Assembly: GCA_944384815.1 (NCBI GenBank)
Contig: CALWUW010000027.1
Location: 243 to 64,242, forward strand
Direction of reading: 5' to 3'
DNA from: an uncultured Clostridia bacterium
Lineage (GTDB): Bacteria > Bacillota > Clostridia > Oscillospirales > Acutalibacteraceae
DNA: 64,000 nucleotides
A program made the position numbers and the translations under genes. Position 1 is the stretch's first letter. Each line of letters begins with the position of its first letter. The notes below the pieces were generated by a model. It did no database searches. It was not told the DNA's origin and saw only the letters and a program-made list of their open reading frames with translations. Below, piece by piece: positions 2,571-64,000 of the stretch.

Positions 2571-2766
2571 GAGAAAACCTCCTGAAACGGACGTGGAACC
2601 CACAGCCGATAAACCGGCTGAGCCGGCGAAAAAACGGTAACGCTATGTTGCTATGACGCTATGACGCCGCGGCACGGCGGCGCTACGGCCTTATAACCCG
2701 CAATGCTCCGGCGGCGCAGATTTGCGGGTTTTATTGTACCATGTTTTTTTGAATTTGAACATACAG

Positions 2767-2876
2767 CAGAAGGCAGAAGGTACAAGGCGCAAGGCACAAG
2801 TCGTAAGGTGTAAGGCACAAGGCGCAGAGTAAGAGTATAGAGCACAGAGCACAGAACACAGAACACAAAGCAAAAG
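2767..2876. repeat. Drifting tandem heptamer array (16 units, NNNARRG type)
   Basis: The sequence reads CAGAAGG CAGAAGG TACAAGG CGCAAGG CACAAGT CGTAAGG TGTAAGG CACAAGG CGCAGAG TAAGAG TATAGAG CACAGAG CACAGAA CACAGAA CACAAAG CAAAAG. Confidence 0.9.
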
Positions 2877-3004: not shown

Positions 3005-3033
3005 TGCAACAAAAACGGACTTTCAAACGTGTA
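3005..3033 (+). promoter_or_regulatory. ECF-type promoter candidate TGCAAC-N17-CGTGTA, preceded by an A/T-tract (2978-2997)
   Basis: The same TGCAAC-N17-GT.TATAGAA arrangement, with the same AAAAAATTTTT-type tract, recurs upstream of the second ECF sigma gene (26760-26791). Confidence 0.45.
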
Positions 3034-3062: not shown

Positions 3063-3581
3063 ATGCGGGACTACGAAAGCAAAGAAAACGTGCACCCCGA
3101 TTGGGAAGAAGTGTATCATCGCTATGTGGAAATGGTGTATCGGACTTGCGCTTATTTTTTGAAGCACCCGGCAGACGCAGAAGACGCGGTGCAGACGGTC
3201 TTTTTGCGCTTTTTGGAAAAAGCCCCTCCTTTTCAGGAAGAAGAACACTGTAAGGCCTGGCTTTTGGTCACGGCCTCCAATGTGTGCAGGGATGTGCTGC
3301 GGCGGAAAAAGGCCATCCCTCTGGAAGCCCCGGAAAATGCCGGGCAGGCCTTTTGGCGCCGGGAGGAAGCTGCTCCCGGAGAGGAAGAGAAAATCCTGGA
3401 AATTTTACTGACGCTTCCGCTGCGGTATAAACAGGTAATGTATCTTTATTATTACGAAGGATATTCCTGTGAGGAAACAGCGGCTTTACTAAAGAAAAAT
3501 CCCTCCACCGTCCGCACTCTTCTTCGCAGGGGAAGGGAAAAGCTGAAAATTCAGTTGGCAGGAAAGGAAGGATCCAAATGA
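3063..3581 (+). CDS. ECF-family RNA polymerase sigma-70 factor
   Basis: Region 2 (DAEDAVQTVFLRFL...KAWLLVTASNVCRDVLRRKK) and region 4 (YKQVMYLYYYEGYSCEETAALLKKNPSTVRTLLRRGREKL) are both present. A GGAGGGGG RBS precedes the start. Confidence 0.9.
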   Translation: MRDYESKENVHPDWEEVYHRYVEMVYRTCAYFLKHPADAEDAVQTVFLRFLEKAPPFQEEEHCKAWLLVTASNVCRDVLRRKKAIPLEAPENAGQAFWRREEAAPGEEEKILEILLTLPLRYKQVMYLYYYEGYSCEETAALLKKNPSTVRTLLRRGREKLKIQLAGKEGSK

Positions 3582-4648: not shown

Positions 4649-4784
4649 CGGAACAGCCCGGCGTCCGATGCCCGGCGTGCAAAACGAAAATATAAGTTCA
4701 GGTGTTCAGGAAGCCGGAGGCGTTCCGGCTCCCTCAGGAAAGATAGCGGGACAGGATACGGGCCGTAAGCCGCAGCCCCATAGC

Positions 4785-4856
4785 CCTACAGTCACACAGC
4801 CACACAGACCTAAATCCTACAGACTACAGACTACAGACCACAGTCACAGGCCACAG
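4785..4856. repeat. Drifting tandem 7-8-mer array (CCTACAG/ACTACAG type)
   Basis: The sequence reads CCTACAG TCACACAG CCACACAG ACCTAAAT CCTACAG ACTACAG ACTACAG ACCACAG TCACAG GCCACAG. Confidence 0.85.
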
Positions 4857-4920
4857 CGGCGGGCGTATACAGGGAAACAGGCGCCCGCAGGCGAAAATCC
4901 AAAACAAAGGAGGAATTCTT

Positions 4921-5730
4921 ATGGCAAAGCATTCTGGTTCTTGTGGTTCCTTTCTGAAAAAAGCGCCTACAGCAGCGCCGTCACTCCGGAAAATGGCGGC
5001 CGTATTTCTGGCGTTTTCCCTTTTGCTTCTTTCCGCTTGCCAGGGAAATACCTCTCAGGTTACCTATGAATTTCGTCCTTTTGCTTCTTTGTATTATCAG
5101 GACCGGCAGTATGAGGCGTATACATCGGTGAATTGTATTGCCCGGGAAAAGCAGGATATAGAAATGCTTTTGGAGGAATACCTGGGAGAAGCCAGGCCGT
5201 CCCAGGGAGAGGCGGGGGAAGAAACCGGCGCCCATCCCGATCTCACCGGAAACTTCCCTACGGAATCGAAGGTGTATACGCTGGAAGATTACGATCCCCG
5301 ATTTTTGCTGTGCCGGCTTCGTGAAGGACCGGAAGGGGAGCTTAGCCGGATTGTGTTCCACCAATGCCTGGATGATTTTACCATTGCCACCGGGGAGGAC
5401 TTGTTCGGAGATCTGCTGCATCTGCATCAAAACGCGTGGGGTTTGGAAAAAGGGATGGCTTCTCCGGAAGGGCCGTATGCCCTCCCGGAAAACTGGGATG
5501 CGTTTCTGGAAGAATTGTATGCGGCTCCCGTGGCTACCCCTGGGGATGGGGAACTCCGGCAAGGAATATATATTTTTCTCAATGTGCAAAAAGGAATGCA
5601 GGTGAGTTTGCACCTGAATCCAAACGGTTGGGTGGGATTTTCCGATACGTACTTCCGGGTGGAAGGGGAAGAATACCGGAAAGTCTATGCCTATTGCCAG
5701 GGATTTTATGCGACGCCCATCCGGGAATAA
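4921..5730 (+). CDS. Lipoprotein, paralogue 2 of the anti-sigma ectodomain family
   Basis: An AAGGAGG RBS precedes the start and the lipobox is LLLLSAC. The protein shares the conserved blocks listed for 3578-4648. Confidence 0.85.
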   Translation: MAKHSGSCGSFLKKAPTAAPSLRKMAAVFLAFSLLLLSACQGNTSQVTYEFRPFASLYYQDRQYEAYTSVNCIAREKQDIEMLLEEYLGEARPSQGEAGEETGAHPDLTGNFPTESKVYTLEDYDPRFLLCRLREGPEGELSRIVFHQCLDDFTIATGEDLFGDLLHLHQNAWGLEKGMASPEGPYALPENWDAFLEELYAAPVATPGDGELRQGIYIFLNVQKGMQVSLHLNPNGWVGFSDTYFRVEGEEYRKVYAYCQGFYATPIRE

Positions 5731-5926
5731 AGGAAAGATGACGAAAAGAAACGGTTGCCGCCGGAACACAGGAACACCGGAACACTGAAACACCGGATTG
5801 GCAGCAGACCTGTAAGAGAATAAAGAAGAGAGGAATGTGAAAAGCGAAAGAAAAAGGGAAAAAGAAAAAAGAAAAAAGAAAAATGGAAACGTGTATGGTT
5901 CAGCAATGTTGAAAGGGGGAATCTTC

Positions 5927-10985: not shown

Positions 10986-12785
10986 ATGGTGTTCAGCAAA
11001 AAGAGAGCAGGAAGTCTGCTTTTGGCGCTGGCTTTGTGCCTGGGAACAGCTGCTTGCAGCCAGTCCCCCGCCAGTGAAAGCGGATCTCCTTCCGGTTCTC
11101 CTTCCGGTTCTTCTTCCGGAACGGAGGGCGGAATCCCGGAGATCGAACTGACCGGCGAGACCAATGTTTATGGTTGGGAAGTTCCTAAGGAGACGATTTC
11201 GTTTGCGTATTATTCGGCCTCGGACAGCACGGTAAACCAGGACGAGGAAAATGAAAGAATCCAGGCAGTTACCAGTCTTTATGAGGAAGAATTCAATCTG
11301 AAGATCCAGAAGATCGTTTATAAGCAGGATCCCACGGAGCGTCTGAACCTGATGCTCACGGGCAATGAGTATCCGGACGCCATCGTTGGCATGCCGGAGG
11401 CTATGGCCAGCACGTTCATCTCCCAGGAAAGAGCTGTAGAGCTGACTCCTTATCTGGACAAATATGGCCAGGGCGTGTACGATGCTTTGGGCAAATATGT
11501 AAACCTGATGAAGGAAGAGGACGGCTCTCTGTACAAGATGCCGTATACATACGGTCATACCACCGACTTCCTGGGCCAGGACTTCTCTATTCGTAATGAC
11601 CTTCTGAAGAAAGCCGGGCTGGATTATCCGGAAAGCTTTGAAGAGTACTACGAAGCTATGAAGACCATTCTGGAGCAGAACCCCACCAACGAGAATGGTG
11701 AAAAGGCTTATGCGTTTACAGCATTTTCCGCTAAGGGCGAAGAATTCTATCAGGCGCCTCTGGCTCTGCTGGGCTTCTATGGCTCCCCCACCGGCTACTA
11801 CAAGATGGACGACGAAGGCACCATTACCCACTGGGTAGACACCGAGGAAGGCCTCTGGGTAGCCAAATACATCAACCAGTTCTGGAGAGACGGCATGATC
11901 GACCCCGACTTCCAGACCAAGGACTATGACCAGTCTGTTGCCTTTATGTCCAGTGAACGTGTATACGGCAACCTCGGCACCTGGTGGTACAACCGTGTAG
12001 GCGCGGAAAACGTTTGGTCCGCTACGGAGTCGGATTGGACCGTTGAGAAGCGTATGCAGAACATGGTTTGGGAGACGGAGGGCTACACTCCCCGCACCAT
12101 CCGCGACAACTTTGTAGGCAGCACCCGCAGCATCATTACCGATAAAGCGGAGCATCCGGAATGGATCGTAAAGTACTGGGATTGGGAAACCACTCCTCTG
12201 GCCTTTGAGCTCCTGCGTCATGGCCCCATGGACACCGGTCTGTGGACTGTAAATGAAGACGGCGATATCGTAGAAGATGAGAAAATGCTCTTCGGCGATC
12301 CGGAAGATCCCAACTGGACCTATAACGACGCAGTAAGCAAGAACGGCGGCTTCAGCTATGTAATGATGGTTCCCGGCGCTACTCCTGAGCACCGCGTGGA
12401 AGATCCCAGCGAAGGCTGGGCGGATCCTGTGGAAGCTGTTAACCTGTGGGGCGGCACCTGGAAATGGGAACTGGTAGACCAGAGCAAGATGACCCCCATC
12501 ATGATGATGGAACTGCTGCCCAGAGAGACGGAAAAGCCTTATCTGTGGGATCAGACGATTTGGACGGTAAACTGGTCTTCTGACGACCCGACTTATGTAA
12601 CCTATACCGACATCAAGGAAGCCATCGTAGCGGACTGGATCAAGGTGGTTATGGCAGAATCCGAAGAGCAGTGCGAACAGTATTTTAACGAGATGAAAGA
12701 ACATCTGCATAGCCTGGGCTTGGACGATGTAACGGCTTATCAGCAGGAATGCGTAACAGCCAACAGAACCAAGCTGGAAGGCTGA
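10986..12785 (+). CDS. Large extracellular solute-binding lipoprotein (LplA/family-1 type), paralogue 1
   Basis: The lipobox is LGTAAC, followed by a Ser/Gly linker and then IPEIELTGETN.YGWE.PKETISF. It is ~70% identical by eye to the two downstream genes. A GAGGAGG RBS precedes the ATG at 10986. Confidence 0.85.
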   Translation: MVFSKKRAGSLLLALALCLGTAACSQSPASESGSPSGSPSGSSSGTEGGIPEIELTGETNVYGWEVPKETISFAYYSASDSTVNQDEENERIQAVTSLYEEEFNLKIQKIVYKQDPTERLNLMLTGNEYPDAIVGMPEAMASTFISQERAVELTPYLDKYGQGVYDALGKYVNLMKEEDGSLYKMPYTYGHTTDFLGQDFSIRNDLLKKAGLDYPESFEEYYEAMKTILEQNPTNENGEKAYAFTAFSAKGEEFYQAPLALLGFYGSPTGYYKMDDEGTITHWVDTEEGLWVAKYINQFWRDGMIDPDFQTKDYDQSVAFMSSERVYGNLGTWWYNRVGAENVWSATESDWTVEKRMQNMVWETEGYTPRTIRDNFVGSTRSIITDKAEHPEWIVKYWDWETTPLAFELLRHGPMDTGLWTVNEDGDIVEDEKMLFGDPEDPNWTYNDAVSKNGGFSYVMMVPGATPEHRVEDPSEGWADPVEAVNLWGGTWKWELVDQSKMTPIMMMELLPRETEKPYLWDQTIWTVNWSSDDPTYVTYTDIKEAIVADWIKVVMAESEEQCEQYFNEMKEHLHSLGLDDVTAYQQECVTANRTKLEG

Positions 12786-13445: not shown

Positions 13446-15245
13446 ATGAAAAAAAGCAAAAGATGGCTGGGTCTGTTGATGGCCGGCGCAATGCTTGTAA
13501 GCGCTGCTGCCTGTAATCAGACACCTGCCAGCGAAAGCGGATCGTCATCCGGTACATCTTCTGGAACGTCTTCCGGCAGTGAAGAAGGCGGCGTTCCGGA
13601 GATCGAGCTTACCGGTGAGACCAACAAGTATGGCTGGGAAATTCCCAAAGAGACCATTTCCTTCGAGTACTATGAAGCGTACGAAGGCGATCAGGGTGAC
13701 GAGGATGAGCGCTTGGCGCAGGTGGATTCCGTCCTGAAGGACGAGTTCAATCTGGAAATTCAGAAGATCCTGTATAAGCAGGCTCCCAACGAGCGTCTGC
13801 AGTTGATGCTCCAGAGCAACGATTATCCGGATGCTATTATCGGCATGGATGACTCCCAGGCTAACACCTTTATCGATCAGGGAAGAGCCGTGGAACTGAC
13901 CCCCTATCTGGAGAAATATGGTCAGAATATTCTGGCTGGCTTGGGCAACTACATCAACCTGATGAAGGATGACGAAGGCAACGTATACAAACTTCCTCAG
14001 AGCTATGGTGATACCACCGATACTCTGGGCCGCTCCTTCTCTGTTCGTGCCGACCTGTTGAAGAAAGCAGGTTTGGACTTCCCCACCAGCTTTGAAGAGT
14101 ATTATGAAGCCATCAAGACTATGGTAGAGCAGAATCCCACCAACGAAGCCGGTGAAAAGACCTACGGCTTTACGGCATTTACCATGAAGGGCGAGGAATT
14201 CTATCAGACGCCTCTGGCTTACCTGGGCTTCTACGGCTCTCCCACGGGCTACTACAAGATGGACGATTCCGGCAAGATCACCCACTGGGTGGACACCGAA
14301 GAAGGCCTCTGGGTAGCCAAGTACATCAACCAGTTCTGGAGAGATGGTCTGATCGATCCTGACTTCCAGACTAAGGACTATGACCAGTCCATCGCTTTCA
14401 TGTCCAACGAGCGCGTAGTGGGTAACATCGGCACTTGGTGGCACCCCTACTGCGGCGGCCATCAGATTTGGATGACCACCGATCCCGACTGGACCATTGA
14501 GAAGCACTTCCAGGAAGTAACTTGGGAAACCGATGGCGAAACTCCTCGTCTGATTTCCAACAACTTCATCCGTACCCAGAGAAACATCATCACCGATAAG
14601 GCTGAGCATCCCGAATGGCTGATCAAGTACGGCAACTGGGAGACCACTCCTATGGGCGTTGCGTTCGTTTCCATGGGGCCGGAAGGCGAAGATCGCCCCT
14701 GGAAGATCAATGAGGACGGCGAGATTCAGGTTAGCGATTATATGTACTACGGCAAACCCGGCGATGACTCCTTCCTGTGGGATACCTGGGAAGCCGATCT
14801 GGGCGCTGGCAACTATCAGATGTTCGTTCCTGCCTACACGCCTGTAAGCCGCAGAGACAATCCGGCCGAAGGCTGGGCTGCCCCCACTATCTCTGTTAAC
14901 ATCTGGGGAACCGTAAGTGACTTCTCTCAGTTGGATCAGAGCAAACTGGGCGCTGACCGTCTGGTGGATATGTACAACGCGGAAACCGCCAAGACTTATC
15001 TGTGGGATCAGACCATGTGGAGCATCTCCTTTGCGGCGGATGATCCCAGATCGATCACTTATACAGATATCTCCACTGCTATTGCGGCGGACTGGATCAA
15101 GGTGGTTATGGCAGAATCCGAAGAGCAGTGCGAGCAGCTCTTTAACGACATGAGAGATAACCTGCATGCTTTGGGTCTGGACGATATCGTTGCCTATCAG
15201 CAGGAAACGGTAACAGCCAACACCAATAAGTTTGAGGGCAAATAA
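13446..15245 (+). CDS. Large extracellular solute-binding lipoprotein, paralogue 2
   Basis: The lipobox is VSAAAC. A GGGAGG RBS is present and the conserved blocks match paralogue 1. Confidence 0.9.
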   Translation: MKKSKRWLGLLMAGAMLVSAAACNQTPASESGSSSGTSSGTSSGSEEGGVPEIELTGETNKYGWEIPKETISFEYYEAYEGDQGDEDERLAQVDSVLKDEFNLEIQKILYKQAPNERLQLMLQSNDYPDAIIGMDDSQANTFIDQGRAVELTPYLEKYGQNILAGLGNYINLMKDDEGNVYKLPQSYGDTTDTLGRSFSVRADLLKKAGLDFPTSFEEYYEAIKTMVEQNPTNEAGEKTYGFTAFTMKGEEFYQTPLAYLGFYGSPTGYYKMDDSGKITHWVDTEEGLWVAKYINQFWRDGLIDPDFQTKDYDQSIAFMSNERVVGNIGTWWHPYCGGHQIWMTTDPDWTIEKHFQEVTWETDGETPRLISNNFIRTQRNIITDKAEHPEWLIKYGNWETTPMGVAFVSMGPEGEDRPWKINEDGEIQVSDYMYYGKPGDDSFLWDTWEADLGAGNYQMFVPAYTPVSRRDNPAEGWAAPTISVNIWGTVSDFSQLDQSKLGADRLVDMYNAETAKTYLWDQTMWSISFAADDPRSITYTDISTAIAADWIKVVMAESEEQCEQLFNDMRDNLHALGLDDIVAYQQETVTANTNKFEGK

Positions 15246-15518: not shown

Positions 15519-17321
15519 ATGAAAAGAGGAAAACGATGGATAAGTTTGCTGCTGTCGGGCATTCTGTTAGCCAGCGCCGCGGCCTGCAGTCAGACACCCG
15601 CCAGTGAAAGCAGCTCGTCGTCCGGTTCTTCTTCCGGAACATCTTCCGGTAGTGAAGAAGGAGGCGTTCCGGAGATTGAGCTTACCGGTGAGACCAACAA
15701 GTACGGCTGGGAAATCCCCAAAGAAACCATTGCTTTTGACTATTACATGGCAGAAGAGGGAGATCAGGGCGAAGAGGACGAAAGAATCGCGGAAATTACC
15801 CAGATCTTTAAAGATGAGTTTAATTTGGAGATCAAAAAGATTCTTTACAAGCAGGCTCCTACGGAACGTTTGCAGTTAATGCTTACCGGCAACGAATATC
15901 CGGACGCTATTGTGGCAATGGATGATGCTATGGCTAATGATTTTATTTCCCAGGATCGTGCTGTGGAATTGACACCGTATCTGGAAAAATACGGTGACGA
16001 TGTTTTAGCTGCTCTGGGAAAATACGTCAACCTGATGAAGGATGACGAAGGGAATCTGTATAAACTTCCCTATAGCTACGGACATACCACCGATTATATG
16101 GGCAAGGATTTCTCCATTCGGAACGATCTTTTGAAGGAAGCCGGACTGGATTATCCGGACAGCTTTGAGTCCTATTATGAGGCCCTGAAGACCATCGTGG
16201 AGCAGAACCCCACTAACGAAGCCGGTGAAAAAACCTATGGATTTACCGCCTTCTCTCTCAAGGGCGAAGAATTCTATCAGGTTCCCCTGGCATTCCTGGG
16301 ATTCTACGGCGCGCCAACCGGTTACTATAAGATGGACGACGGCGGTAAGATCACTCACTGGGTAGACACCGAGGAAGGCCTTTGGGTAGCGAAGTACATC
16401 AACCAGTTCTGGAGAGATGGCCTTATTGATCCAGATTTCCAGACCAAGGATTATGACCAGTCTGTTGCCTTTATGTCCACCGGTCGTGTATTGGGCAACA
16501 TCGGTACTTGGTGGCACAACCGTGTAGGCGCAGAGAATATTTGGGTACAGACGGATCCCAACTGGACCAATGAAAAGCGGATGCAGAACCTGACTTGGGA
16601 AACCGGAGACGCGACTCCCAGGCTGATCACGGATAACTTTATCCGTACCCAGAGAACCATTATCACGGACAAAGCGGAACATCCGGAATGGATCGTAAAA
16701 TACTGGAACTGGGAAACCACGCCTAAGGCAGTGGCGCTTCTGCGGGATGGTCCGGAAGGCGGAGAGGACCGCTGCTGGTCTATCAATGAAGACGGACTGT
16801 GCGAAGTAAATGAAAAATGCTGGTATGGTGATCCGGACGATCCTCAGTTCCTGTGGGATAATCTCCGGGATCAGAACGGCGGATTCAACTATGTGATGAT
16901 GGCTCCCGGGTACACTCCGGAAAGCCGTGTGGAAAATCCTGCGGAAGGATGGGCGCCTCCTGTGGAAACCATCAACCTGTGGGGCGGAACAGCGTTTGCC
17001 AATCAAATTGACCAGAGCCGGTTGACGGAAATGGGCAGAATGGATGCCCTGATCCAGGAAACTTCCGATCCGTATCTGTGGGATCAGACCATGTGGAGCA
17101 TTTCCTTTGAGGCGGATGACCCCAGAGGAATTATGTATACCGATATCAAGGAAGCCATTGTGGCGGACTGGATCAAGGTGGTTATGGCGGAATCTGAGGA
17201 GCAGTGCGAGCAGCTCTTCAATGAGATGAAGGAACATCTGCATTCTTTGGGGCTGGACGAAATCGTTGCTTATCAGCAAGAAACGGTAACGACCAACACC
17301 GAGAAATTTGAAGGAAAATAA
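15519..17321 (+). CDS. Large extracellular solute-binding lipoprotein, paralogue 3
   Basis: The lipobox is LASAAAC. An AGGGAGG RBS precedes the ATG at 15519, and the track start at 15486 is probably too long. Confidence 0.9.
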   Translation: MKRGKRWISLLLSGILLASAAACSQTPASESSSSSGSSSGTSSGSEEGGVPEIELTGETNKYGWEIPKETIAFDYYMAEEGDQGEEDERIAEITQIFKDEFNLEIKKILYKQAPTERLQLMLTGNEYPDAIVAMDDAMANDFISQDRAVELTPYLEKYGDDVLAALGKYVNLMKDDEGNLYKLPYSYGHTTDYMGKDFSIRNDLLKEAGLDYPDSFESYYEALKTIVEQNPTNEAGEKTYGFTAFSLKGEEFYQVPLAFLGFYGAPTGYYKMDDGGKITHWVDTEEGLWVAKYINQFWRDGLIDPDFQTKDYDQSVAFMSTGRVLGNIGTWWHNRVGAENIWVQTDPNWTNEKRMQNLTWETGDATPRLITDNFIRTQRTIITDKAEHPEWIVKYWNWETTPKAVALLRDGPEGGEDRCWSINEDGLCEVNEKCWYGDPDDPQFLWDNLRDQNGGFNYVMMAPGYTPESRVENPAEGWAPPVETINLWGGTAFANQIDQSRLTEMGRMDALIQETSDPYLWDQTMWSISFEADDPRGIMYTDIKEAIVADWIKVVMAESEEQCEQLFNEMKEHLHSLGLDEIVAYQQETVTTNTEKFEGK

Positions 17322-19803: not shown

Positions 19804-19844
19804 CAACCAATAAACCAACAAGCCAACAAGCCAACAAGCCAACG
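19804..19844. repeat. Tandem 8-mer array (CAAGCCAA type)
   Basis: The sequence reads CAACCAAT AAACCAA CAAGCCAA CAAGCCAA CAAGCCAA. Confidence 0.85.
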
Positions 19845-19892: not shown

Positions 19893-19959
19893 CGTATATT
19901 CCTTATACTCTGTATGCTCCTGGTGTTCCTTATGTTTCGTATGTTCCGTTCGTTCTGTC
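19893..19959. repeat. Drifting ~9-mer array (NNTATNNTC type)
   Basis: The sequence reads CGTATATTC CTTATACTC TGTATGCTC CTGGTGTTC CTTATGTTTC GTATGTTC CGTTCGTTC. Confidence 0.75.
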
Positions 19960-31346: not shown

Positions 31347-31430
31347 TAAACAGTAAACCGTAAACAGTAAACAGAAAGCAGGAACAAGAGGCAGGAAACC
31401 GGAAACAGGAAACCGAAGATCGGAAACCGG
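31347..31430. repeat. Drifting tandem heptamer array (12 units in perfect register)
   Basis: The sequence reads TAAACAG TAAACCG TAAACAG TAAACAG AAAGCAG GAACAAG AGGCAGG AAACCGG AAACAGG AAACCGA AGATCGG AAACCGG. Confidence 0.9.
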
Positions 31431-31448: not shown

Positions 31449-31483
31449 AATGCCCCGCCTGGAAACAGGCGGGGCATTTTTGT
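31449..31483. terminator. Intrinsic terminator between convergent operons
   Basis: The stem AATGCCCCGCC/GGCGGGGCATT is followed by TTTTG. Confidence 0.8.
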
Positions 31484-31505: not shown

Positions 31506-32561
31506 TTAGGAAAAATAGGATTCCGGATCCCGGAAGGCGTTTCCTTCCAGAACGGCGAAACCTGCCGGCGATTCTCCGCAGCTTCCCACAGGTTCCCCTT
31601 GGGACACCCTGTCCCCTTCCTGGAGGGTAACGCTTTCCAGGGAATAAAACAGCGAATATTGTCCGTTTCCGTGAGAAAGGATCAGCTGTGTGCCTCGGCC
31701 GTTTCGATACAGCACGGTTCCGTCTTTGGGGGCAAGAGCCTGGGTGCCGTTTTCCACTTGATAGACGGTTCCGGTGGAAAGCAGACCGTTTTCTTCCGGC
31801 TGGCCAAAGGAAAGCAGAACCTCCCCTGGGGAAGAAAAGGGAAAGGAGAAGGTTTCCTGGGCCAAAGGTTCCCCGAAGAAAAGGGAAAGCCCGTGGGGAG
31901 CATACCCGGAAAGAAGGATCTGGCATTGCATCCGTGTTTGTTCCGAATCCATGGAAGCTTCCGGAGAGAGTGACAGCAGCTCCCCTTCCCGGAAGGAGAA
32001 CAAGGAGAATCCAGGAGAAAACATGGATTGGATCAGCTGCTGGGTTTCCGTTATAAGCGTTTGGGAAGCGGATTCCGGGAAAACAAGGGAAAGCTGTTCC
32101 TGCTCATAGGAAGTGGCAAAGAAAAAGAGCATTTGGTCGTAAGAAAAATAGGGCAGGTTTTCTTTAAAGGAAGTGAAAAGATTCCCGGAAGCATTCCAGG
32201 CGGCATACTGGGTGGCGCCCTCCGTTTCTCCGGGAAATACGCCCAATATCAGCAGAGAATTGGGATTTTCCGGGGGAAGGGGATCCCTTGCCTCTTCGGA
32301 GGAAACGGAGGAAAAAGGAGAAGAAGAGGAAGAGGAGGGGAGGGGTTGGGAACTGGCGGAAGAGGCAGGGTGAAGCTCCTGCTGCACCAGCGGGAAAATT
32401 TGCACAAAGAAAAAGGCGATACAGCCAAAAACAATGGCGGCGGCCAAAGCAGGCAGGGGGGAACGTTTTTTGCCTGCGGAAGCGGAGAGATTGTGCAGCA
32501 GCCGCTCCTTCATGGCTTCGTCGGCCTGCAGACGGTCCATTCCTTTTCGGTATCGGTTCAT
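31506..32561 (-). CDS. Anti-sigma factor with a C-terminal degenerate LytM/M23-like domain
   Basis: It overlaps the sigma gene by 4 nt. The TM segment is LPALAAAIVFGCIAFFFVQIF, followed by a Ser/Pro linker. The C-terminus LILSHGNGQYSLFYSLESVTLQEGDRVSQGEPVGSCG...GFAVLEGNAFRDP follows the M23 pattern, but the YaHL and HxH histidines appear to be replaced. Confidence 0.7.
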   Translation of the reverse strand: MNRYRKGMDRLQADEAMKERLLHNLSASAGKKRSPLPALAAAIVFGCIAFFFVQIFPLVQQELHPASSASSQPLPSSSSSSPFSSVSSEEARDPLPPENPNSLLILGVFPGETEGATQYAAWNASGNLFTSFKENLPYFSYDQMLFFFATSYEQEQLSLVFPESASQTLITETQQLIQSMFSPGFSLFSFREGELLSLSPEASMDSEQTRMQCQILLSGYAPHGLSLFFGEPLAQETFSFPFSSPGEVLLSFGQPEENGLLSTGTVYQVENGTQALAPKDGTVLYRNGRGTQLILSHGNGQYSLFYSLESVTLQEGDRVSQGEPVGSCGESPAGFAVLEGNAFRDPESYFS

Positions 32562-33034: not shown

Positions 33035-33142
33035 CGTTTTCCCTCCCCCTTTACGCTGCATACAGTATACCGTAAACAAGGGCGTTTTGTCTCACTTTTC
33101 CATTCCCTAAAAAAATTTTTTTAAAAAATTTTGCCGGTTCCC

Positions 33143-33171
33143 TTGAAACAGTCGAACATATGTTCTAAAAT
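33143..33171 (+). promoter_or_regulatory. Sigma-A promoter TTGAAA-17-TAAAAT with an embedded LexA (Cheo) box CGAACATATGTTCT at 33153-33166
   Basis: The box matches the Bacillus-type consensus CGAAC-N4-GTTCG at 13 of 14 positions and fills the promoter spacer. Confidence 0.7.
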
Positions 33172-33255
33172 AAAAGTACATTCGGTGCAAAAATCGGAAA
33201 AATGGGGTTCCGGAAAATCAACGGCGGCCCTGTGAAAAGAAAGGGGAGCGCAGGT

Positions 33256-33468
33256 ATGGAATATATGGGATGGGGAAAAGAATATTTACAGCAGGCGGAT
33301 CGCCTGCAGAAACGGATCGGGCAGCTTCGGGAAAAAGCCCGCACGGTTTCTTCCCGGGAAGAGGCGGACGAGCTGGCCCGGCGGGCAGCGCTGCTGTATG
33401 ATATGTATTTGGACTGCCTTCACGCCGGGCGCCTTCTTCAAAAGCGAGGAAGGAGGAATGCGGCGTGA
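33256..33468 (+). CDS. Small (70 aa) predicted helical protein of unknown function
   Basis: An AAGGGGAG RBS is present. The sequence MEYMGWGKEYLQQADRLQKRIGQLREKARTV... looks coiled-coil-like. Its stop overlaps the next start (GTGA). Confidence 0.6.
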   Translation: MEYMGWGKEYLQQADRLQKRIGQLREKARTVSSREEADELARRAALLYDMYLDCLHAGRLLQKRGRRNAA

Positions 33469-33785
33469 GGCACAAGCTTCTGAGCCTGGAGCGCATGGGG
33501 GACCGGGCCATTCCTTCTTTTCAGGAAGAAACCTTTGGAAAATGGGGAAGAGAAGAAGAGGAAAGCTTTTCCCAAAAAAGGCGGCGCATGGCGGCTTTGC
33601 TTCAGGAGGGCATTCAAAAAGAGCTGACCCAGCGGCAAAAGGACTGTTTCCGGAAATACTATTTCCAGAAGCAGTCCCAGGAAGAGATCGCCCGGGAACT
33701 GGGGATCACCGTGCCTACGGTTTCCCGGCATTTAAAAAAAGCCCGGAGTCGTTTGCAGCAAATCGCCCGATATGGGGATTTTTAG
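33465..33785 (+). CDS. Sigma-70 region-4-only HTH DNA-binding protein
   Basis: LTQRQKDCFRKYYFQKQSQEEIARELGITVPTVSRHLKKARSRL is a region-4 HTH and no region 2 is present. The start is a GTG after GGAGGA. Confidence 0.65.
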   Translation: MRHKLLSLERMGDRAIPSFQEETFGKWGREEEESFSQKRRRMAALLQEGIQKELTQRQKDCFRKYYFQKQSQEEIARELGITVPTVSRHLKKARSRLQQIARYGDF

Positions 33786-33878
33786 GAGAAGGTTCACGGA
33801 GAAATGCCCTTCTTCCTGCAAAGAATGCTTTCTTATGAAAAATAAGGAGAAAAATTTCAGGGAAACTGTCCCTTTGCC

Positions 33879-33907
33879 TTGCTTTTTTCGGAAATCCTTC
33901 CTATACT
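33879..33907 (+). promoter_or_regulatory. Sigma-A-type promoter TTGCTT-17-TATACT upstream of ybjQ
   Basis: Read directly from the sequence. Confidence 0.5.
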
Positions 33908-33945
33908 GAGGGCAGAAGATTTTTAAAAAACAGGGAGGATGGGCC

Positions 33946-40041: not shown

Positions 40042-40611
40042 TCAGTAAATCTTAAACAGCACTTGTCCGTATTCCACCAGCTGCTGGTTCTCAATGCAAA
40101 TATCCACAATCTCTCCGTCTTCCGGAGCGGTGTATTCGTTCATCAGCTTCATGGCTTCCAGGATGCAGAGAGTCTGCCCTTTCTTTACCTTGCTTCCAAT
40201 GTGCACAAAAGGTTCCGCACCCGGTTCCGGCGCGGTGTAAACCACGCCCACCATGGGGGATTTCAGCTCCCGCATACCGTTAAAGTCCACCACCTGGGAG
40301 GGGCCTTTCGCAGGCGCCTCTTCCGGCTGTTCCGCAACCGGGGCCGCAGAGCCAGCAGAGCCAGCGGAAACAGCGGGGCCCGCAGCACCCGCAACGCCTG
40401 CAACACCGGCAACAGTTTCCATCCCCGGGAAAGCGGCGGGAATCTCCGCCGGCTTTGCAGGTTCCCGTTTCAGGGAGAGGCTTTCTTCTCCCCGGCGGAT
40501 CTCCAGGGAGGTCAGCCCGGTATCTGCCATGATTTGGGCCAGTTCCCGGATCACAGCAGGGTCTTCTCCGCAGCTTTTTTTATTGGCATCTAAATTGCTC
40601 ATATCGTCCAT
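40042..40611 (-). CDS. accB: Biotin carboxyl carrier protein
   Basis: It has the biotinylation motif EAMKLMN and an Ala/Pro/Gly linker. A GGAGGAGAGG RBS precedes the ATG at 40611. Confidence 0.9.
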   Translation of the reverse strand: MDDMSNLDANKKSCGEDPAVIRELAQIMADTGLTSLEIRRGEESLSLKREPAKPAEIPAAFPGMETVAGVAGVAGAAGPAVSAGSAGSAAPVAEQPEEAPAKGPSQVVDFNGMRELKSPMVGVVYTAPEPGAEPFVHIGSKVKKGQTLCILEAMKLMNEYTAPEDGEIVDICIENQQLVEYGQVLFKIY

Positions 40612-41845: not shown

Positions 41846-41862
41846 GGTTTCGCCTCCTGTAC

Positions 41863-41909
41863 GGTTACACAGTTACACGATTACACAGTTACATGGTTAC
41901 ACAGTTACA
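41863..41909. repeat. Drifting tandem repeat (GTTACAC/GTTACATG type) filling the fabG-fabF spacer
   Basis: The sequence reads GGTTACACA GTTACACGA TTACACA GTTACATG GTTACACA GTTACATG GTTACATG. Confidence 0.85.
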
Positions 41910-41912
41910 TGG

Positions 41913-42656
41913 TTACATGCTCATGCCGCCGTCCACCCGGAGCACTTCTCCCGTAATATAGGAAGCGGCGTCTCCGGCCAGAAAAGCGGCAGCTTCCGCC
42001 ACATCCTCCGGCGTTCCGGCCCGCTTGGCGGGAATGGAAGAGAGGATGGCCTCCCGGGCTTTTTCCGGCAGGGCGGCGGTCATATCCGATGCGATATATC
42101 CCGGAGCGATGGCATTGCAAGTGACATTCCGCCCGGCCAGCTCCTTGGCCACGCTTTTGGTCAGGCCGATGAGCCCGGCTTTGGCGGCGGAATAGTTGGC
42201 CTGACCGGCATTTCCGTTTAAACCCACCACGGAGGAAATGTTGATGATCCTTCCGGAACGCTTCCGCATAAAGTGGGAATACAAATGCCGGATCATATGG
42301 AAAGCTCCGGTGAGATTGATGGAAAGCACCCGGGCAAAGTCTTCTTCTTTCATGGAAAGCACCAGGCCGTCCCGAACGATCCCCGCGTTGTTGACCAAAA
42401 TGTCCACGCCGCCGAAATCTTCCAGAACGGACTGGACCACGGCCTTTGTGGCCTCAAAGTCCGAAACATCGCAGGAATAGGTTTTCACCCGGACTCCCAG
42501 CGCTTCCACCTGTGCCTTGGTTTCTTCCGCAGCCTGATGGTTCCCGGCGTAAACCAGGGCGATGTTCGCCCCTTCCTGAGCCAGACGCAGCGCGATGGCT
42601 TTTCCGATGCCGCGGGAGCCTCCGGTGATTAAAGCTGTTTTCTGATTCAGTTTCAT
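41913..42656 (-). CDS. fabG: 3-oxoacyl-ACP reductase
   Basis: TGGSRGIGKA and YSAAKAG are present. The ATG at 42656 gives MKLNQKTALITGG. Confidence 0.9.
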   Translation of the reverse strand: MKLNQKTALITGGSRGIGKAIALRLAQEGANIALVYAGNHQAAEETKAQVEALGVRVKTYSCDVSDFEATKAVVQSVLEDFGGVDILVNNAGIVRDGLVLSMKEEDFARVLSINLTGAFHMIRHLYSHFMRKRSGRIINISSVVGLNGNAGQANYSAAKAGLIGLTKSVAKELAGRNVTCNAIAPGYIASDMTAALPEKAREAILSSIPAKRAGTPEDVAEAAAFLAGDAASYITGEVLRVDGGMSM

Positions 42657-44594: not shown

Positions 44595-44650
44595 GTCTGC
44601 CGTCTGCCGTCTGCCATATGCCGTCTGCCGCATGTGGTCGGTCGTGGCTG
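44595..44650. repeat. Drifting tandem heptamer array (GTCTGCC type, 8 units)
   Basis: The sequence reads GTCTGCC GTCTGCC GTCTGCC ATATGCC GTCTGCC GCATGTG GTCGGTC GTGGCTG. Confidence 0.9.
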
Positions 44651-45084: not shown

Positions 45085-45232
45085 TTTCTGGTTTCTCGGT
45101 TTCCCAGGTTCCTGGGTTCCCGAATTTCGGGGATGCCGGAAACTTGGGGATAGCGGAAAGCCTGTGGAAAGCTTGATCCGGCCCGAGAATCAGGGGTCAG
45201 GGCTCAGGACGCAGGGCTCAGGAATCAGGGCT
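45085..45232. repeat. Long composite drifting repeat (GGTTTCY ... GGAAAGC ... TCAGGGC units) in the fabH-acpP spacer
   Basis: It runs from GGTTTCT CGGTTTCC CAGGTTCC TGGGTTCC ... to TCAGGGG TCAGGGC TCAGGAC GCAGGGC TCAGGAA TCAGGGC, and the last unit abuts the fabH stop codon. Confidence 0.8.
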
Positions 45233-46184
45233 CCCAGCGCACAAGGGCCGTGCCGGATGTGAACCCGGCGCCGAACCCGCAGAGGATCATCAGATCCCCC
45301 GGCTTCAGCAGTTGGTCTCTGCGGCAGAAGTCCAGAAGCACCGGAATGCTGGCGGCGGAAAGGTTTCCTGTTTCCTGAATGCACAGGCGGTAACGATCCC
45401 CGGGGATGGGAAGTTTTTTCCGGGCGGCGTCGATGATCCGCAGATTGGCCTGGTGTAGGATTACATGGCGAATTTCCTCCGGGGAAACCCCGGTCTCCTG
45501 CAGAATGGTCTCGATGCCGGAGCAAATGGTGCTCACCGCAAATTTATATACTTCCTGCCCGTCCATATGGACAAAATGGTTTTCCGGTTTTACCGAAAGC
45601 CAGGGACTGTTTCCTCCCGGAAAACAACCGTGCAGCGGCTCCGGGCAGCCTTTGGTCTCCAGATGCAGGGAAAGCAGGCTTTCCCCTTCTCCCAACACCA
45701 CCGCGCCGGCGCCGTCTCCAAAAAGAACGCAGGTGGAGCGGTCCTCCCAGTCCATAATGCGGCTCAGGCCTTCCGCGGCGGCGATCAGCACATACCGGGC
45801 TTTTTTCCGGGCGAAAATGCCCTCCGCCGCGTCCAGGGCAAAAAGGAAACCGCTGCAGGCGGCGTTGATGTCCATAGCCGGGCAGTGGGCGCCTAAAGCG
45901 GCTTGCAGCGTGGCGCTGAGCCCGGGGGTGATATAATCGCCCCCTACAGTGGGGCAGAGGATCCAGCCCAGCTCTTCCGGGACAATCCCCGCCTGCTCCA
46001 GCGCCTTTCGGGACGCTTCTGCCGCCAGATCCGTAACGGTTTCCGTGGTCATCACATGCCGGCGGCAGATCCCGGTGCGGGTGCGGATCCATTGATCGCT
46101 GGTGTCCAGGATCTGGGCCAAGTCGTCATTGGTTTTTACACATTGCGGCAGAGCACTGCCGGTTCCTAAAATTCGAAAGCTCAT
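45225..46184 (-). CDS. fabH: Beta-ketoacyl-ACP synthase III
   Basis: INAACSGFLFAL carries the Cys. HQAN and GFGAGFT are also present. Confidence 0.9.
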   Translation of the reverse strand: MSFRILGTGSALPQCVKTNDDLAQILDTSDQWIRTRTGICRRHVMTTETVTDLAAEASRKALEQAGIVPEELGWILCPTVGGDYITPGLSATLQAALGAHCPAMDINAACSGFLFALDAAEGIFARKKARYVLIAAAEGLSRIMDWEDRSTCVLFGDGAGAVVLGEGESLLSLHLETKGCPEPLHGCFPGGNSPWLSVKPENHFVHMDGQEVYKFAVSTICSGIETILQETGVSPEEIRHVILHQANLRIIDAARKKLPIPGDRYRLCIQETGNLSAASIPVLLDFCRRDQLLKPGDLMILCGFGAGFTSGTALVRWEP

Positions 46185-57029: not shown

Positions 57030-57752
57030 ATGAAAACCGCCTTAGTCACAGGAGGAAGCCGGGGAATCGGCAGAGCCGTCTGCCGGCAGCTGGCTCAGGA
57101 CGGATACCGTGTGATCATTGGCTGCTGTTCCCATTTGGAGCAAGGGCTGGAGCTGCAGCGGGAGCTGGAGGAAAAAACCGGGCTGGAGCATCGAGCTATC
57201 CAGGCGGATCTTCGCCGGGAGGAAGAAATTGCCCGTTTGTTCCAGGAGGCGGGGCCGGTGGACCTGCTGGTGAATAACGCAGGCATTGCCCGGCAAACGT
57301 TGTTTACCGATGTTTCCGCGGAAGAATGGGATGATCTGTTTGCGGTGAACGTTCGAGGGGCTTTTCTGTGCACCCGTTACGCCCTGCCGGAGATGATCCG
57401 GAAAAAAGAAGGGTGCGTGATTTTTATTTCCTCCATGTGGGGGCAGGTGGGCGCTTCCTGCGAGGCGGTGTACTCGGCATCCAAGGCGGCGCTGATCGGC
57501 CTGACCAAGGCTCTGGCCAAGGAAGAAGGGCCTTCCGGCATTCGGGTCAACTGCATTGCCCCGGGGGTGATCCATACAGAGATGAACGCTGGGCTTTCTT
57601 CGGAAGACCTGGAAGCCTTGCGACAGGAAACGCCCCTGGAACGGATCGGGACCCCGGAGGATATTGCCCGGGCGGTGAGTTTCCTGGCCGGGGAAAAGGC
57701 CTCTTTTATCACCGGGCAGGTGTTGGGGGTCAATGGGGGCTTTGTGATCTAA
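57030..57752 (+). CDS. SDR-family oxidoreductase (FabG-like)
   Basis: TGGSRGIGRA and YSASKAA are present. A GGAGGA RBS lies 6 nt before the ATG at 57030. Confidence 0.85.
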   Translation: MKTALVTGGSRGIGRAVCRQLAQDGYRVIIGCCSHLEQGLELQRELEEKTGLEHRAIQADLRREEEIARLFQEAGPVDLLVNNAGIARQTLFTDVSAEEWDDLFAVNVRGAFLCTRYALPEMIRKKEGCVIFISSMWGQVGASCEAVYSASKAALIGLTKALAKEEGPSGIRVNCIAPGVIHTEMNAGLSSEDLEALRQETPLERIGTPEDIARAVSFLAGEKASFITGQVLGVNGGFVI

Positions 57753-57791
57753 AACGGAAACAGCGGAAACGTTCAGAAGCGAGAGCAAAAG

Positions 57792-57823
57792 AAAAAGGCA
57801 GGCTGCGTGCAGCCTGCCTTTTT
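57792..57823. terminator. Bidirectional intrinsic terminator
   Basis: The stem AAAAAGGCAGGCTGC/GCAGCCTGCCTTTTT is present. Confidence 0.85.
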
Positions 57824-60437: not shown

Positions 60438-60530
60438 CTTTTGCCTTTGCCTTTGCTTTTGGCTGAAATACCTTCGCCTGAAATGGCTTCGACGAAAATC
60501 TCTCAGCTCAAAATAATTTCGCCGAAAAGC
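60438..60530. repeat. Drifting tandem repeats (TTTGCC 6-mers, then TGAAAT..CTTCGCC ~15-mers)
   Basis: The sequence reads CTTTTGCC TTTGCC TTTGCT TTTGGC TGAAATACC TTCGCC TGAAATGGC TTCGAC GAAAATCTC .... Confidence 0.75.
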
Positions 60531-60566
60531 AAAACCCGCCTGCGTGCTTCGCTCAGGCGGGTTTTT
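60531..60566. terminator. Bidirectional intrinsic terminator
   Basis: The stem AAAACCCGCCTG/CAGGCGGGTTTT is present. Confidence 0.8.
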
Positions 60567-62050: not shown

Positions 62051-62106
62051 AAAAAAGCTGTATGCTGTTCTCCGGCCACGGGCACAGGAGGCACACAGCA
62101 TACAGC
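62051..62106 (-). terminator. Hairpin plus U-tract between the precursor and maturase genes (partial terminator or attenuator)
   Basis: On the minus strand, GCTGTATGCT ... AGCATACAGC forms a 10-bp stem followed by TTTTTT. Confidence 0.55.
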
Positions 62107-62123
62107 CTACAGCACTTCGTTTC

Positions 62124-63851: not shown

Positions 63852-64000
63852 AAAAAACTCCTATCGACTGTGGTTTATGGTTTATGGGTTATGGCCATGG
63901 GGTTTCGGGAAAAGGGAACCCAAACCAGCATTTTTCTGAGCAGCTGGTGCAGCCATTGGTTTTTGGGAAAGGTTAAAAAGAAACCAGAGGAAGAAATTCT

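Follow-up and report, generated by a model that had tools for sequence, protein, structure and literature searches.

Drifting tandem arrays of 7- and 8-nucleotide units in the intergenic spacers of an uncultured gut Clostridia bacterium as probable slippage-derived microsatellites

The 64-kb stretch of DNA analysed here, called the window throughout, belongs to an uncultured gut Clostridia bacterium, and its intergenic spacers contain many short head-to-tail arrays of 7- and 8-nucleotide (nt) units. The main array, at positions 2767-2876, had been described in a sequence-only reading as a series of heptamers whose unit sequence drifts from copy to copy. This description is exact, as the array consists of 16 contiguous units, 14 of 7 nt and two of 6 nt. 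The arrays arose in place by tandem duplication of local sequence. They are probably microsatellites of the long simple sequence repeat (LSSR) type that replication slippage would generate and selection on the reading frame would purge from genes, and most of them would be neutral padding.

Repeats were detected with Tandem Repeats Finder (TRF) at a score cut-off of 30. The window was divided into 53.8 kb of coding and 10.1 kb of intergenic DNA by means of a self-trained gene map, which comprises 52 genes (84 % of the sequence) and was checked against Pfam and against gene calls on public contigs. TRF reported arrays with a period of 7-8 nt at 2640-2667, 2766-2823, 2839-2872, 4773-4856, 5761-5797, 19807-19843, 31347-31430, 41861-41917, 44595-44630, 45190-45233 and 63871-63894, as well as off-period arrays at 19895-19947 (period 9) and 60440-60461 (period 6). 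The matches comprise 3-8 copies, most tracts are 68-93 % matched, and most arrays show 0 % indels. No array with a period of 4 or 5 was present in the window, and matches at periods 10-14 were mostly doubled 7-mers. Nearly all recurrence sites listed in the sequence-only reading were thereby confirmed. Three of them are weaker, namely 57752-57790, which falls under the TRF score of 30, 60438-60530, in which TRF detects only 60440-60461, and 45085-45175, whose units are irregular. Two further arrays, at 5847-5889 and 62091-62114, had been missed.

The abundance of the arrays clearly exceeds the expectation from base composition. Counting arrays with a period of 7 or 8 and at least three copies, 15 were found in the intergenic DNA, compared to 0.09 +/- 0.30 (maximum 2) in 200 dinucleotide-preserving shuffles of this DNA, and none in the 53.8 kb of coding DNA. 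The claim that the arrays are strictly intergenic is nearly right, except that the arrays at 41861-41917 and 45190-45233 start within the last codons and the stop codons of fabG and fabH. Only three short-period arrays lie within genes (40379-40414, period 9; 32308-32338, period 9/6; 57146-57170, period 6), all of them in-frame. Shuffles give 0.38, so that this number is a hint of the same duplication process in genes wherever the reading frame survives. The array at 40379-40414 is a CCCGCAACA repeat in a small gene between fabF and acc-like genes.

Several other known repeat and RNA classes do not account for the arrays. Clustered regularly interspaced short palindromic repeats (CRISPRs) consist of direct repeats (about 24-48 nt) that alternate with unique spacers of comparable size, whereas the arrays are built from contiguous units of 6-9 nt without spacers. 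A unit of the repetitive extragenic palindromic (REP) sequences or bacterial interspersed mosaic elements (BIMEs) is an imperfect palindrome whose conserved sequence is dispersed over many intergenic sites. In contrast, most array regions lack an inverted partner and the sites share no sequence, so that both exclusions made earlier from the letters alone are upheld. Known RNA families and tRNA remnants were ruled out by a search of the whole window with Rfam covariance models at gathering thresholds (0 matches) and by a scan of the window for tRNAs and tmRNAs, which found none.

Tandem repeats are a known cause of assembly errors, and the window apparently stems from a metagenome assembly. Nevertheless, the explanation that the arrays are assembly or polishing errors of a metagenome-assembled contig can practically be dismissed, because the main array is present base for base in nine independent contigs. 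The full 492-nt intergenic region around it is identical in eight. These contigs, located via the adjoining extracytoplasmic function (ECF) sigma factor gene, originate in several samples and three or more projects or pipelines, and they include SPAdes-style NODE contigs, k87 contigs, ONAT22 scaffolds and Logan contigs. The other array loci are likewise present in independent contigs, and variant haplotypes are each common to several independent contigs or samples. A loss of the arrays in independent assemblies had been named beforehand as the sign of an artefact; instead, identical arrays recur across samples, projects and assemblers.

The origin of the arrays from local sequence follows from their units. 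Each array has its own unit, no 10-mer is common to different arrays of the window, and the 10-mers of the arrays occur elsewhere in the window as chance matches only. The best shared 4-mer is found in 9 of 16 arrays while the null maximum averages 14.3, meaning that nothing is shared above chance; a common binding motif was rejected on these grounds. Such distinct local units exclude a dispersed element or a common binding site and indicate tandem duplication in place. This is illustrated by the minus-strand operon for fatty-acid synthesis, which contains three arrays. The ATGTAACC unit of the fabG-fabF spacer corresponds to the last codon of fabG, its stop codon and 2 nt, and the seven copies differ by transitions. 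This end of fabG, ATG-TAA or ATG-TGA, is conserved in the relatives L011, L013, L015 and L017. The array between fabH and acpP begins at the TGA of fabH itself and repeats NCCCTGA. Since these duplications include the stop codon, the protein is left unchanged.

Relatives provide a view of the same spacers without arrays. The closest relatives by FabF are uncultured Clostridia and Oscillospirales, with E10__bin288 (81 %) as the best match among species-representative genomes, followed by Anaeromassilibacillus and Ca. Caccousia (about 75 %). No period-7/8 array was found in the twelve nearest-relative loci (L011-L022, 177 kb), and the fab-operon spacers read in L011, L012, L013, L015 and L017 are ordinary, repeat-free sequence. 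The species itself is rare. Its sigma factor forms a single near-identical cluster, followed by a sister sequence with 69 % identity, which is encoded on the contig L091 (8.3 kb). This sister contig retains the synteny of the gltX-like, sigma and anti-sigma genes and is free of arrays over its 8.3 kb. Its divergent spacer between the gltX-like and sigma genes measures 187 nt, compared to 492 nt in the window, and only two conserved blocks could be aligned. The first one, TGnTACAAT (window 2734-2742, minus strand), looks like an extended -10-like element for the gltX-like gene. The second one, TGCAACAAAA (window 3007-3016), is located about 50 nt upstream of the start codon of the ECF sigma gene and may be part of its own promoter. 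The blocks are about 258 nt apart in the window and about 135 nt apart in the sister, and the 110-nt main array makes up nearly all of this excess of about 123 nt. Because it is located between two divergent promoter-like blocks, the main array is probably untranscribed. The array-free spacers of the sister and the nearest relatives indicate that the arrays were gained in the lineage of the window. Another idea, that the array at 2640-2690 disrupts a longer ancestral N-terminus of the gltX-like protein, was rejected, as the proteins align only from GRFAPSP onwards and an internal Met in the sister gives the same length; the -10-like element is the better reading of the conserved block.

Public contigs of the same species, among them L094, L095, L096, L102 and L103, allowed the comparison of strains that the sequence-only reading had suggested for array length. 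Single-nucleotide polymorphisms (SNPs) and indels were counted in high-scoring segment pairs with at least 97 % identity only, which keeps out paralogous solute-binding protein (SBP) genes. The contigs represent at least three haplotypes with a SNP difference of about 0.5 %. Unit-sized indels were found in three arrays: an insertion of 21 nt (3 x 7) in the GGCAGAC array at 44595-44650 (L095, L096 and L103), an indel of 14 nt (2 x 7) in the NCCCTGA array at 45190-45233 that is common to five contigs, and a deletion of 8 nt in the GGAAACC-type tract at 45085-45175 in L094, a contig found in three samples. Each of them belongs to a haplotype present in several independent contigs or samples. This corresponds to three indels in 682 nt of array compared to two, of 2 nt each, in 3449 nt of other intergenic DNA. 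Apart from a deletion in fabG of L102, all strain indels of at least 7 nt (8, 14 and 21 nt) fall in arrays. SNP sites are also densest there (14.7 per kb, compared to 9.0 in the rest of the intergenic DNA and 5.1 in coding DNA). The 14-nt fabG deletion of L102 (window 42082) and a 2-nt deletion in fabK of L096 (window 44130) were seen in one low-coverage contig each; both are probably assembly errors and not true frameshifts, with L102 having a coverage of 2.5x.

The strain comparison also captures how the units drift. The 21-nt insertion multiplies the unit CATATGG: the window has this mutated unit once, L095, L096 and L103 have a run of it, and such local copying of a point-mutated unit into a run leads to drift of the unit sequence. 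The drift claimed for the main array was borne out, as the summed distance between neighbouring units is 26 compared to 42.5 in permutations (P = 5e-5), and the distance between units, 1.7 at lag 1, grows to about 3.5 from lag 6 onwards. When 15 arrays are pooled, the identity of 0.78 at lag 1 declines to 0.64 at lag 6, and the mismatches between units are biased towards transitions, with 71 transitions to 37 transversions. In four arrays, TRF fits a doubled period of 14 or 16 better than 7 or 8, which points to block duplications. The degenerate main array (in nine contigs), the galK-galE arrays and the fabG-fabF array are invariant in length in 5-10 contigs, while purer tracts vary, as slippage predicts.

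These observations can be combined in one proposed course of events. Strand slippage on short native direct repeats during replication would duplicate a native stretch of 7-8 nt in tandem, and once two or three copies exist, further slips would add or remove whole units or blocks. Point mutations, mostly transitions, would wear down the identity of the units, and the local amplification of a mutated unit would create a run of the new variant, i.e. drift. As 7 and 8 are not multiples of 3, a step of this size within a gene would shift the frame and be removed by selection, so that arrays would pile up only in spacers, including outward from stop codons. Most arrays would then be selectively neutral padding that lengthens the intergenic DNA. 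Slippage and neutrality are the parts that we infer. What the data show is the origin in place, the restriction to this lineage, the indels of one to three units, the amplification of a variant unit and the lack of a common motif or fold. A lineage-specific mutational process with slippage-driven length variation, one of the roles suggested from the sequence alone, is thus supported by the repeat-free relatives, the local units and the strain indels.

Several points weigh against this explanation. Slippage alone does not account for the absence of periods 4-5 and 10-11, and close relatives with similar spacers are free of arrays, which calls for an additional factor specific to the lineage. 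Ten of 16 arrays have an A-rich and T-poor sense strand; this composition could point to selection on the RNA, or simply follow from a background strand bias. Furthermore, several arrays adjoin GC-rich hairpins or ribosome-binding sites (RBSs), where a local effect on expression is possible. Finally, the polymorphism counts are small, with three events.

A regulatory role was weighed against slippage. The arrays could be cis-regulatory platforms, that is periodic DNA or mRNA sites through which an oligomerising protein (Csp, S1, a CsrA- or Hfq-like protein or a nucleoid protein) adjusts translation, termination or the stability of transcripts. We consider this unlikely, even though the arrays at 19804, 41861, 44595 and 63869 lie directly 5' of RBSs, those at 31347, 57752 and 60438 lie between a stop codon and a terminator, and the sense-strand composition just mentioned would suit it. 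A role of this kind has been argued for a conserved heptamer (MacGregor 2015, PMC4679880). In the window, however, every array has a different unit and no k-mer is shared above chance, the number of units varies between strains, and all close relatives manage without arrays in their fab operon, which is conserved and likely essential. The sense-strand RNA folding of the arrays compared to shuffles gave z-scores from -2.4 to +2.5, scattered around 0, and structured or purposely unstructured RNA was rejected on this basis. Complementarity between arrays is restricted to two regions, 45103-45147 and 60452-60533. The positions are mixed as well, comprising 5' leaders, sites just upstream of an RBS, gaps between stop codon and terminator, intercistronic spacers and one inter-promoter spacer, the last being the place of the probably untranscribed main array. 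The protein- or RNA-binding platform put forward in the sequence-only reading thus finds neither a shared motif nor a consistent fold or position, and overall no evidence for a shared function of the arrays was seen. Hairpins were considered too. Six arrays adjoin a GC-rich hairpin, in every case at the end with the lower coordinates, but roughly twelve terminator-like hairpins of equal strength are array-free and most arrays lack an inverted partner, so a hairpin or terminator was rejected as a requirement. For a link to replication direction and stalling at hairpins, the sample was too small.

Phase-variable loci typically have a very pure repeat tract with frequent gain and loss of units that switches a surface or host-interaction gene. 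Strain indels of one to three units and the location of some arrays in promoter or leader regions would be compatible with such contingency loci, where selected hypermutable tracts tune the expression of a neighbour via promoter or RBS spacing. This is very unlikely here, since the flanking genes (fab operon, galK/galE, SecA region and ECF sigma factor) have housekeeping functions and none that concern the surface or the host. The degeneracy of most arrays is too high for slippage to be frequent, and many arrays follow stop codons, where spacing should be immaterial. The instability is also modest, with three events in the 12 array tracts covered at a SNP divergence of about 0.5 %, and the main array does not vary at all among its nine contigs.

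A further alternative retains slippage only for the extension of the arrays and ascribes the initial 7-8-nt tandem duplications to a specific activity, possibly horizontally acquired or driven by a repair defect. Candidates are transposase footprints with target duplications of 7-8 bp, faulty processing of Okazaki flaps and templated end-joining. Such an activity would explain the fixed period together with the patchy phylogeny, given that the period of 7-8 nt is sharp in unrelated lineages and absent from the nearest relatives. Units that copy local sequence resemble target duplications, and the inverted array pairs of some genomes are reminiscent of snap-back synthesis. Nevertheless, we regard this as improbable. 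No candidate gene was found in the window, whose 64 kb are too small for such a search, no element remnants lie beside the arrays, and the strain differences are multi-unit changes within existing arrays that slippage alone can explain. Moreover, many genomes are reported to prefer heptamers (Mrazek 2007, as summarised in PMC4679880), and this speaks for a general property of the polymerase. A related, speculative idea to which we give a low but somewhat higher probability is that the burst of arrays is the signature of a discrete, switchable, genome-wide mutational state that is masked in genes by selection. This state could be a changed replication or repair component, such as a flap endonuclease, single-strand exonucleases or the hand-off between polymerase and primase, or an activity encoded by a mobile element. 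Scattered gut lineages, namely this Oscillospirales-like species, several Bacteroidales, Lentimicrobiaceae and one Ruminococcus, would have developed it independently. If true, identifying its determinant in a comparison of sister genomes with and without arrays would explain the excess of heptanucleotides that has long been noted in bacteria.

Slippage with selection on the reading frame also agrees with what has been described for other bacteria. The arrays had been taken for an undescribed repeat class, but this is not the case, as heptanucleotide LSSRs have already been reported (Mrazek et al. 2007, summarised in PMC4679880 and PMC4692102; MacGregor 2015, PMC4679880). According to these summaries of Mrazek, Guo & Shah (2007, PNAS 104:8472), LSSRs have units of 5-11 nt, with heptanucleotides as the most abundant class in most prokaryotic genomes. 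Genomes rich in such repeats are phylogenetically scattered, heptanucleotides are over-represented in the intergenic DNA of scattered bacteria, and repeats within genes have in-frame periods. About 7 nt was proposed to be the stretch that contacts the polymerase and thereby favours slippage. In the list given in PMC4679880, the ten genomes richest in 5-11-nt repeats belong to Burkholderia, cyanobacteria, actinobacteria and Xanthomonas, and no Clostridia are among them. A targeted literature search found nothing that pairs 'heptanucleotide repeats' with a term for Clostridia or Firmicutes, so that the narrower claim of no clostridial description was not contradicted by this search. The arrays match the heptanucleotide LSSR class, of which they are a new member in Clostridia; the class itself is not new.

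Every testable feature of LSSRs, as given in these summaries, is found in the arrays of the window. They are head-to-tail and spacer-free with periods of 7 and 8, as in the 16 units of the main array that keep in register, and they exceed the expectation from composition (15 compared to 0.09). Units whose length is not a multiple of 3 occur only in non-coding DNA, while the three coding arrays have periods of 6 or 9. Their spread is sporadic, with none in the relatives and dense occurrence in scattered metagenome-assembled genomes (MAGs) of Bacteroidales, Lentimicrobiaceae and Ruminococcus. Their length changes by whole units, as seen in the strain indels of 8, 14 and 21 nt, with slippage itself as the proposed cause. 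Unlike the reported LSSRs, as far as these are summarised, the window arrays have highly degenerate units, and the number of 8-mers among them is as expected from a 7-8-nt window.

Comparison with individual repeat families shows further similarities and differences. In Gramella forsetii, Aequorivita sublithincola and Elizabethkingia, spacers contain several different heptamer repeats each, while the spacers of close relatives are shorter and repeat-free (MacGregor 2015, PMC4679880). The comparison of the window with L091 and L011-L017 gives the same picture, i.e. the same gene neighbourhood with shorter, repeat-free spacers in the relatives, and this pattern was also found in gut Bacteroidales and Lentimicrobiaceae MAGs. 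However, the window belongs to another phylum, and that paper centres on one conserved unit, TAACTGA, for which a translational role was proposed in Beggiatoaceae (PMC4679880), while the loci of the window share none. In Xanthomonas and Nostoc, conserved G-rich, quadruplex-forming heptamers, GGGAATC and GGGGA(T/C)T, occur in inverted pairs and vary between strains (Rehm et al. 2015, PMC4692102). The window arrays resemble these and the cyanobacterial short tandemly repeated repetitive (STRR) sequences in the 7-nt period, the intergenic location, occasional inverted pairs and variation between related strains. With the STRRs, named earlier as the nearest analogue, the period and location agree, but where the STRR, TAACTGA and GGGAATC families have few conserved units at many loci, each window array has its own local unit. 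Eukaryotic micro- and minisatellites share slippage combined with point mutation, local amplification of variants, higher-order periods and instability dependent on purity. The window arrays differ from them in occurring in a bacterial genome with a narrow period of 7-8 nt and in being short (3-16 units), and from classical contingency loci in having fab genes, galK/galE, an ECF sigma factor and an amylase-family gene as neighbours.

The period of 7-8 nt was also found in other lineages. In the window, 14 of 21 arrays have a period of 7 or 8, compared to 40 of 41 in six Bacteroidales and Lentimicrobiaceae loci (110 kb; a crude mask of open reading frames (ORFs) covered more than 90 % of each array-rich MAG locus) and all four in a Ruminococcus locus. 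The other loci, 959 kb in total, contain only 12 such arrays amid many in-frame arrays of period 6, 9 and 12. Neighbouring arrays in the array-rich Bacteroidales are often inverted complements. Reverse-complement pairs lie at L074:20864-20954, L073:4769-4848, L076:10396-10463 and L070:9833-9974, with (AAAAxCTG)n/(TTCTCAGA)n, GGAATTA/TAATTCC and GAGAGTG/CACTCTC as examples that could form long hairpins of tandem units, and L073 and L074, which stem from different MAGs, have the same pair. The Lentimicrobiaceae locus L074 also has conserved units recurring at many loci as in STRRs: AATTAAC and GTTGACTT accompany each other, in the same orientation, at five or more separate intergenic sites (3345-3474, 11215-11282, 13942-13976, 15771-15809 and 16838-16869). 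They are a dispersed STRR-like family, unlike the window, where each array has its own unit. By eye, the two kinds of array in L074 partly pair as RNA if G-U is allowed. At L074:15786-15809, L076:10432-10463 and L082:12603-12635, in three MAGs of Bacteroidales or Lentimicrobiaceae, an array lies directly upstream of a gene starting with ATGAGATTATTA, and the units differ (GTTGACTT, AACTCCT and AAATTCT, respectively). If these genes are orthologous, the position of the array would be kept while its sequence turns over.

The comparison of strains and sister lineage documents the lengthening of intergenic DNA by short tandem duplications seeded from native sequence, stop codons included, and catches the step that produces drifting units directly. 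For practical purposes, the arrays are useful as strain markers, and they are a hazard for short-read assembly and for motif and small RNA prediction in MAGs. The occurrence of the 7-8-nt period in unrelated array-rich lineages, and not in close relatives, offers a clean comparative design for studying what controls the rate of short duplications. The arrays of the window are compiled in the following table.

Table 1. Tandem arrays of the window with their units, detection and surroundings
Position	Strand	Array	Detection	Surroundings and variation
2640-2690		8-mer array, ACGCTATG-type decaying to GC-rich units	TRF 2640-2667, period 8, 3.5 copies	between gltX-like start codon (2570, - strand) and hairpin 2692-2733; identical in 8 other contigs
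2767-2876		main array, 16 drifting heptamers CAGAAGG ... CACAGAA ... CAAAAG	reading and TRF	
4773-4856	+	8-mer array CAGCCACA, then 7-mer array CTACAGA/CCACAGA	TRF; 7-mer part better as period 14	upstream of gene 4921-5730, adjoining hairpin 4857-4890
5761-5797	+	8-mer array CCGGAACA/CAGAAACA	TRF; period 16 outscores 8	
5847-5889	+	A-rich 7-mer array AAAGAAA	TRF; not listed earlier	
19804-19844	-	8-mer array (CCAACAAG on +)	TRF	directly 5' of galE RBS, galK-galE spacer; length invariant in 10 contigs
19893-19959	-	degenerate period-9 array (TATGTTCCT on +)	TRF, 68 % matches	just past galK stop; one SNP between strains
31347-31430	+	7-mer arrays TAAACAG then GGAAACC	TRF	between DHHW-family gene stop codon and terminator hairpin 31449-31478
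41861-41917	-	8-mer array, unit ATGTAACC x7	period 16 is 92 % matched	fills fabG-fabF spacer; invariant in 5 contigs
44595-44650	-	7-mer array GGCAGAC (sense strand)		acpP-fabK spacer; polymorphic
45085-45175	-	irregular GGTTTCC-type units, then inverted GGAAAC-type counterpart		potential hairpin, arms 45103-45124/45126-45147 73 % complementary, folding z = -2.1; polymorphic
45190-45233	-	7-mer array NCCCTGA starting with fabH stop codon	TRF	polymorphic
57752-57790	+	weak array AAACGG/AAACAG, about 2.5 units	by eye; below TRF score 30	between stop codon and terminator hairpin 57792-57823
60438-60530	+	6-7-mer array CTTTTGC/CTTTGC (60440-60461), then degenerate, partly complementary units	TRF for 60440-60461	between alpha-amylase-family gene stop codon and terminator hairpin 60531-60565
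62091-62114		short 7-mer array GCATACA	TRF; not listed earlier	
63869-63910	-	7-mer array (TGGTTTA on +)	TRF	directly 5' of RBS of decarboxylase gene 62412-63851

Some features of the gene map are recorded here as well. Two gaps of more than 900 nt, at 631-1562 and 33035-33945, contain several weak hairpins, no arrays and no Rfam match, and they may hide small genes (ORFs 433-903, 846-1331 and 33398-33838). The genes at 10986-12785, 13446-15245 and 15546-17321 are three tandem paralogues of about 600 amino acids each that match one another in BLAST, and a public contig assigns the third to the SBP_bac_1 family. The spacers between them, of 660 and 300 nt, are array-free. The hairpin at 2692-2733 (AACCCGCA...TGCGGGTT), together with a T-rich run on the plus strand, resembles an intrinsic terminator. 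There is no plus-strand gene upstream of it, and it lies within the putative 5' leader of the gltX-like gene, which is on the minus strand.

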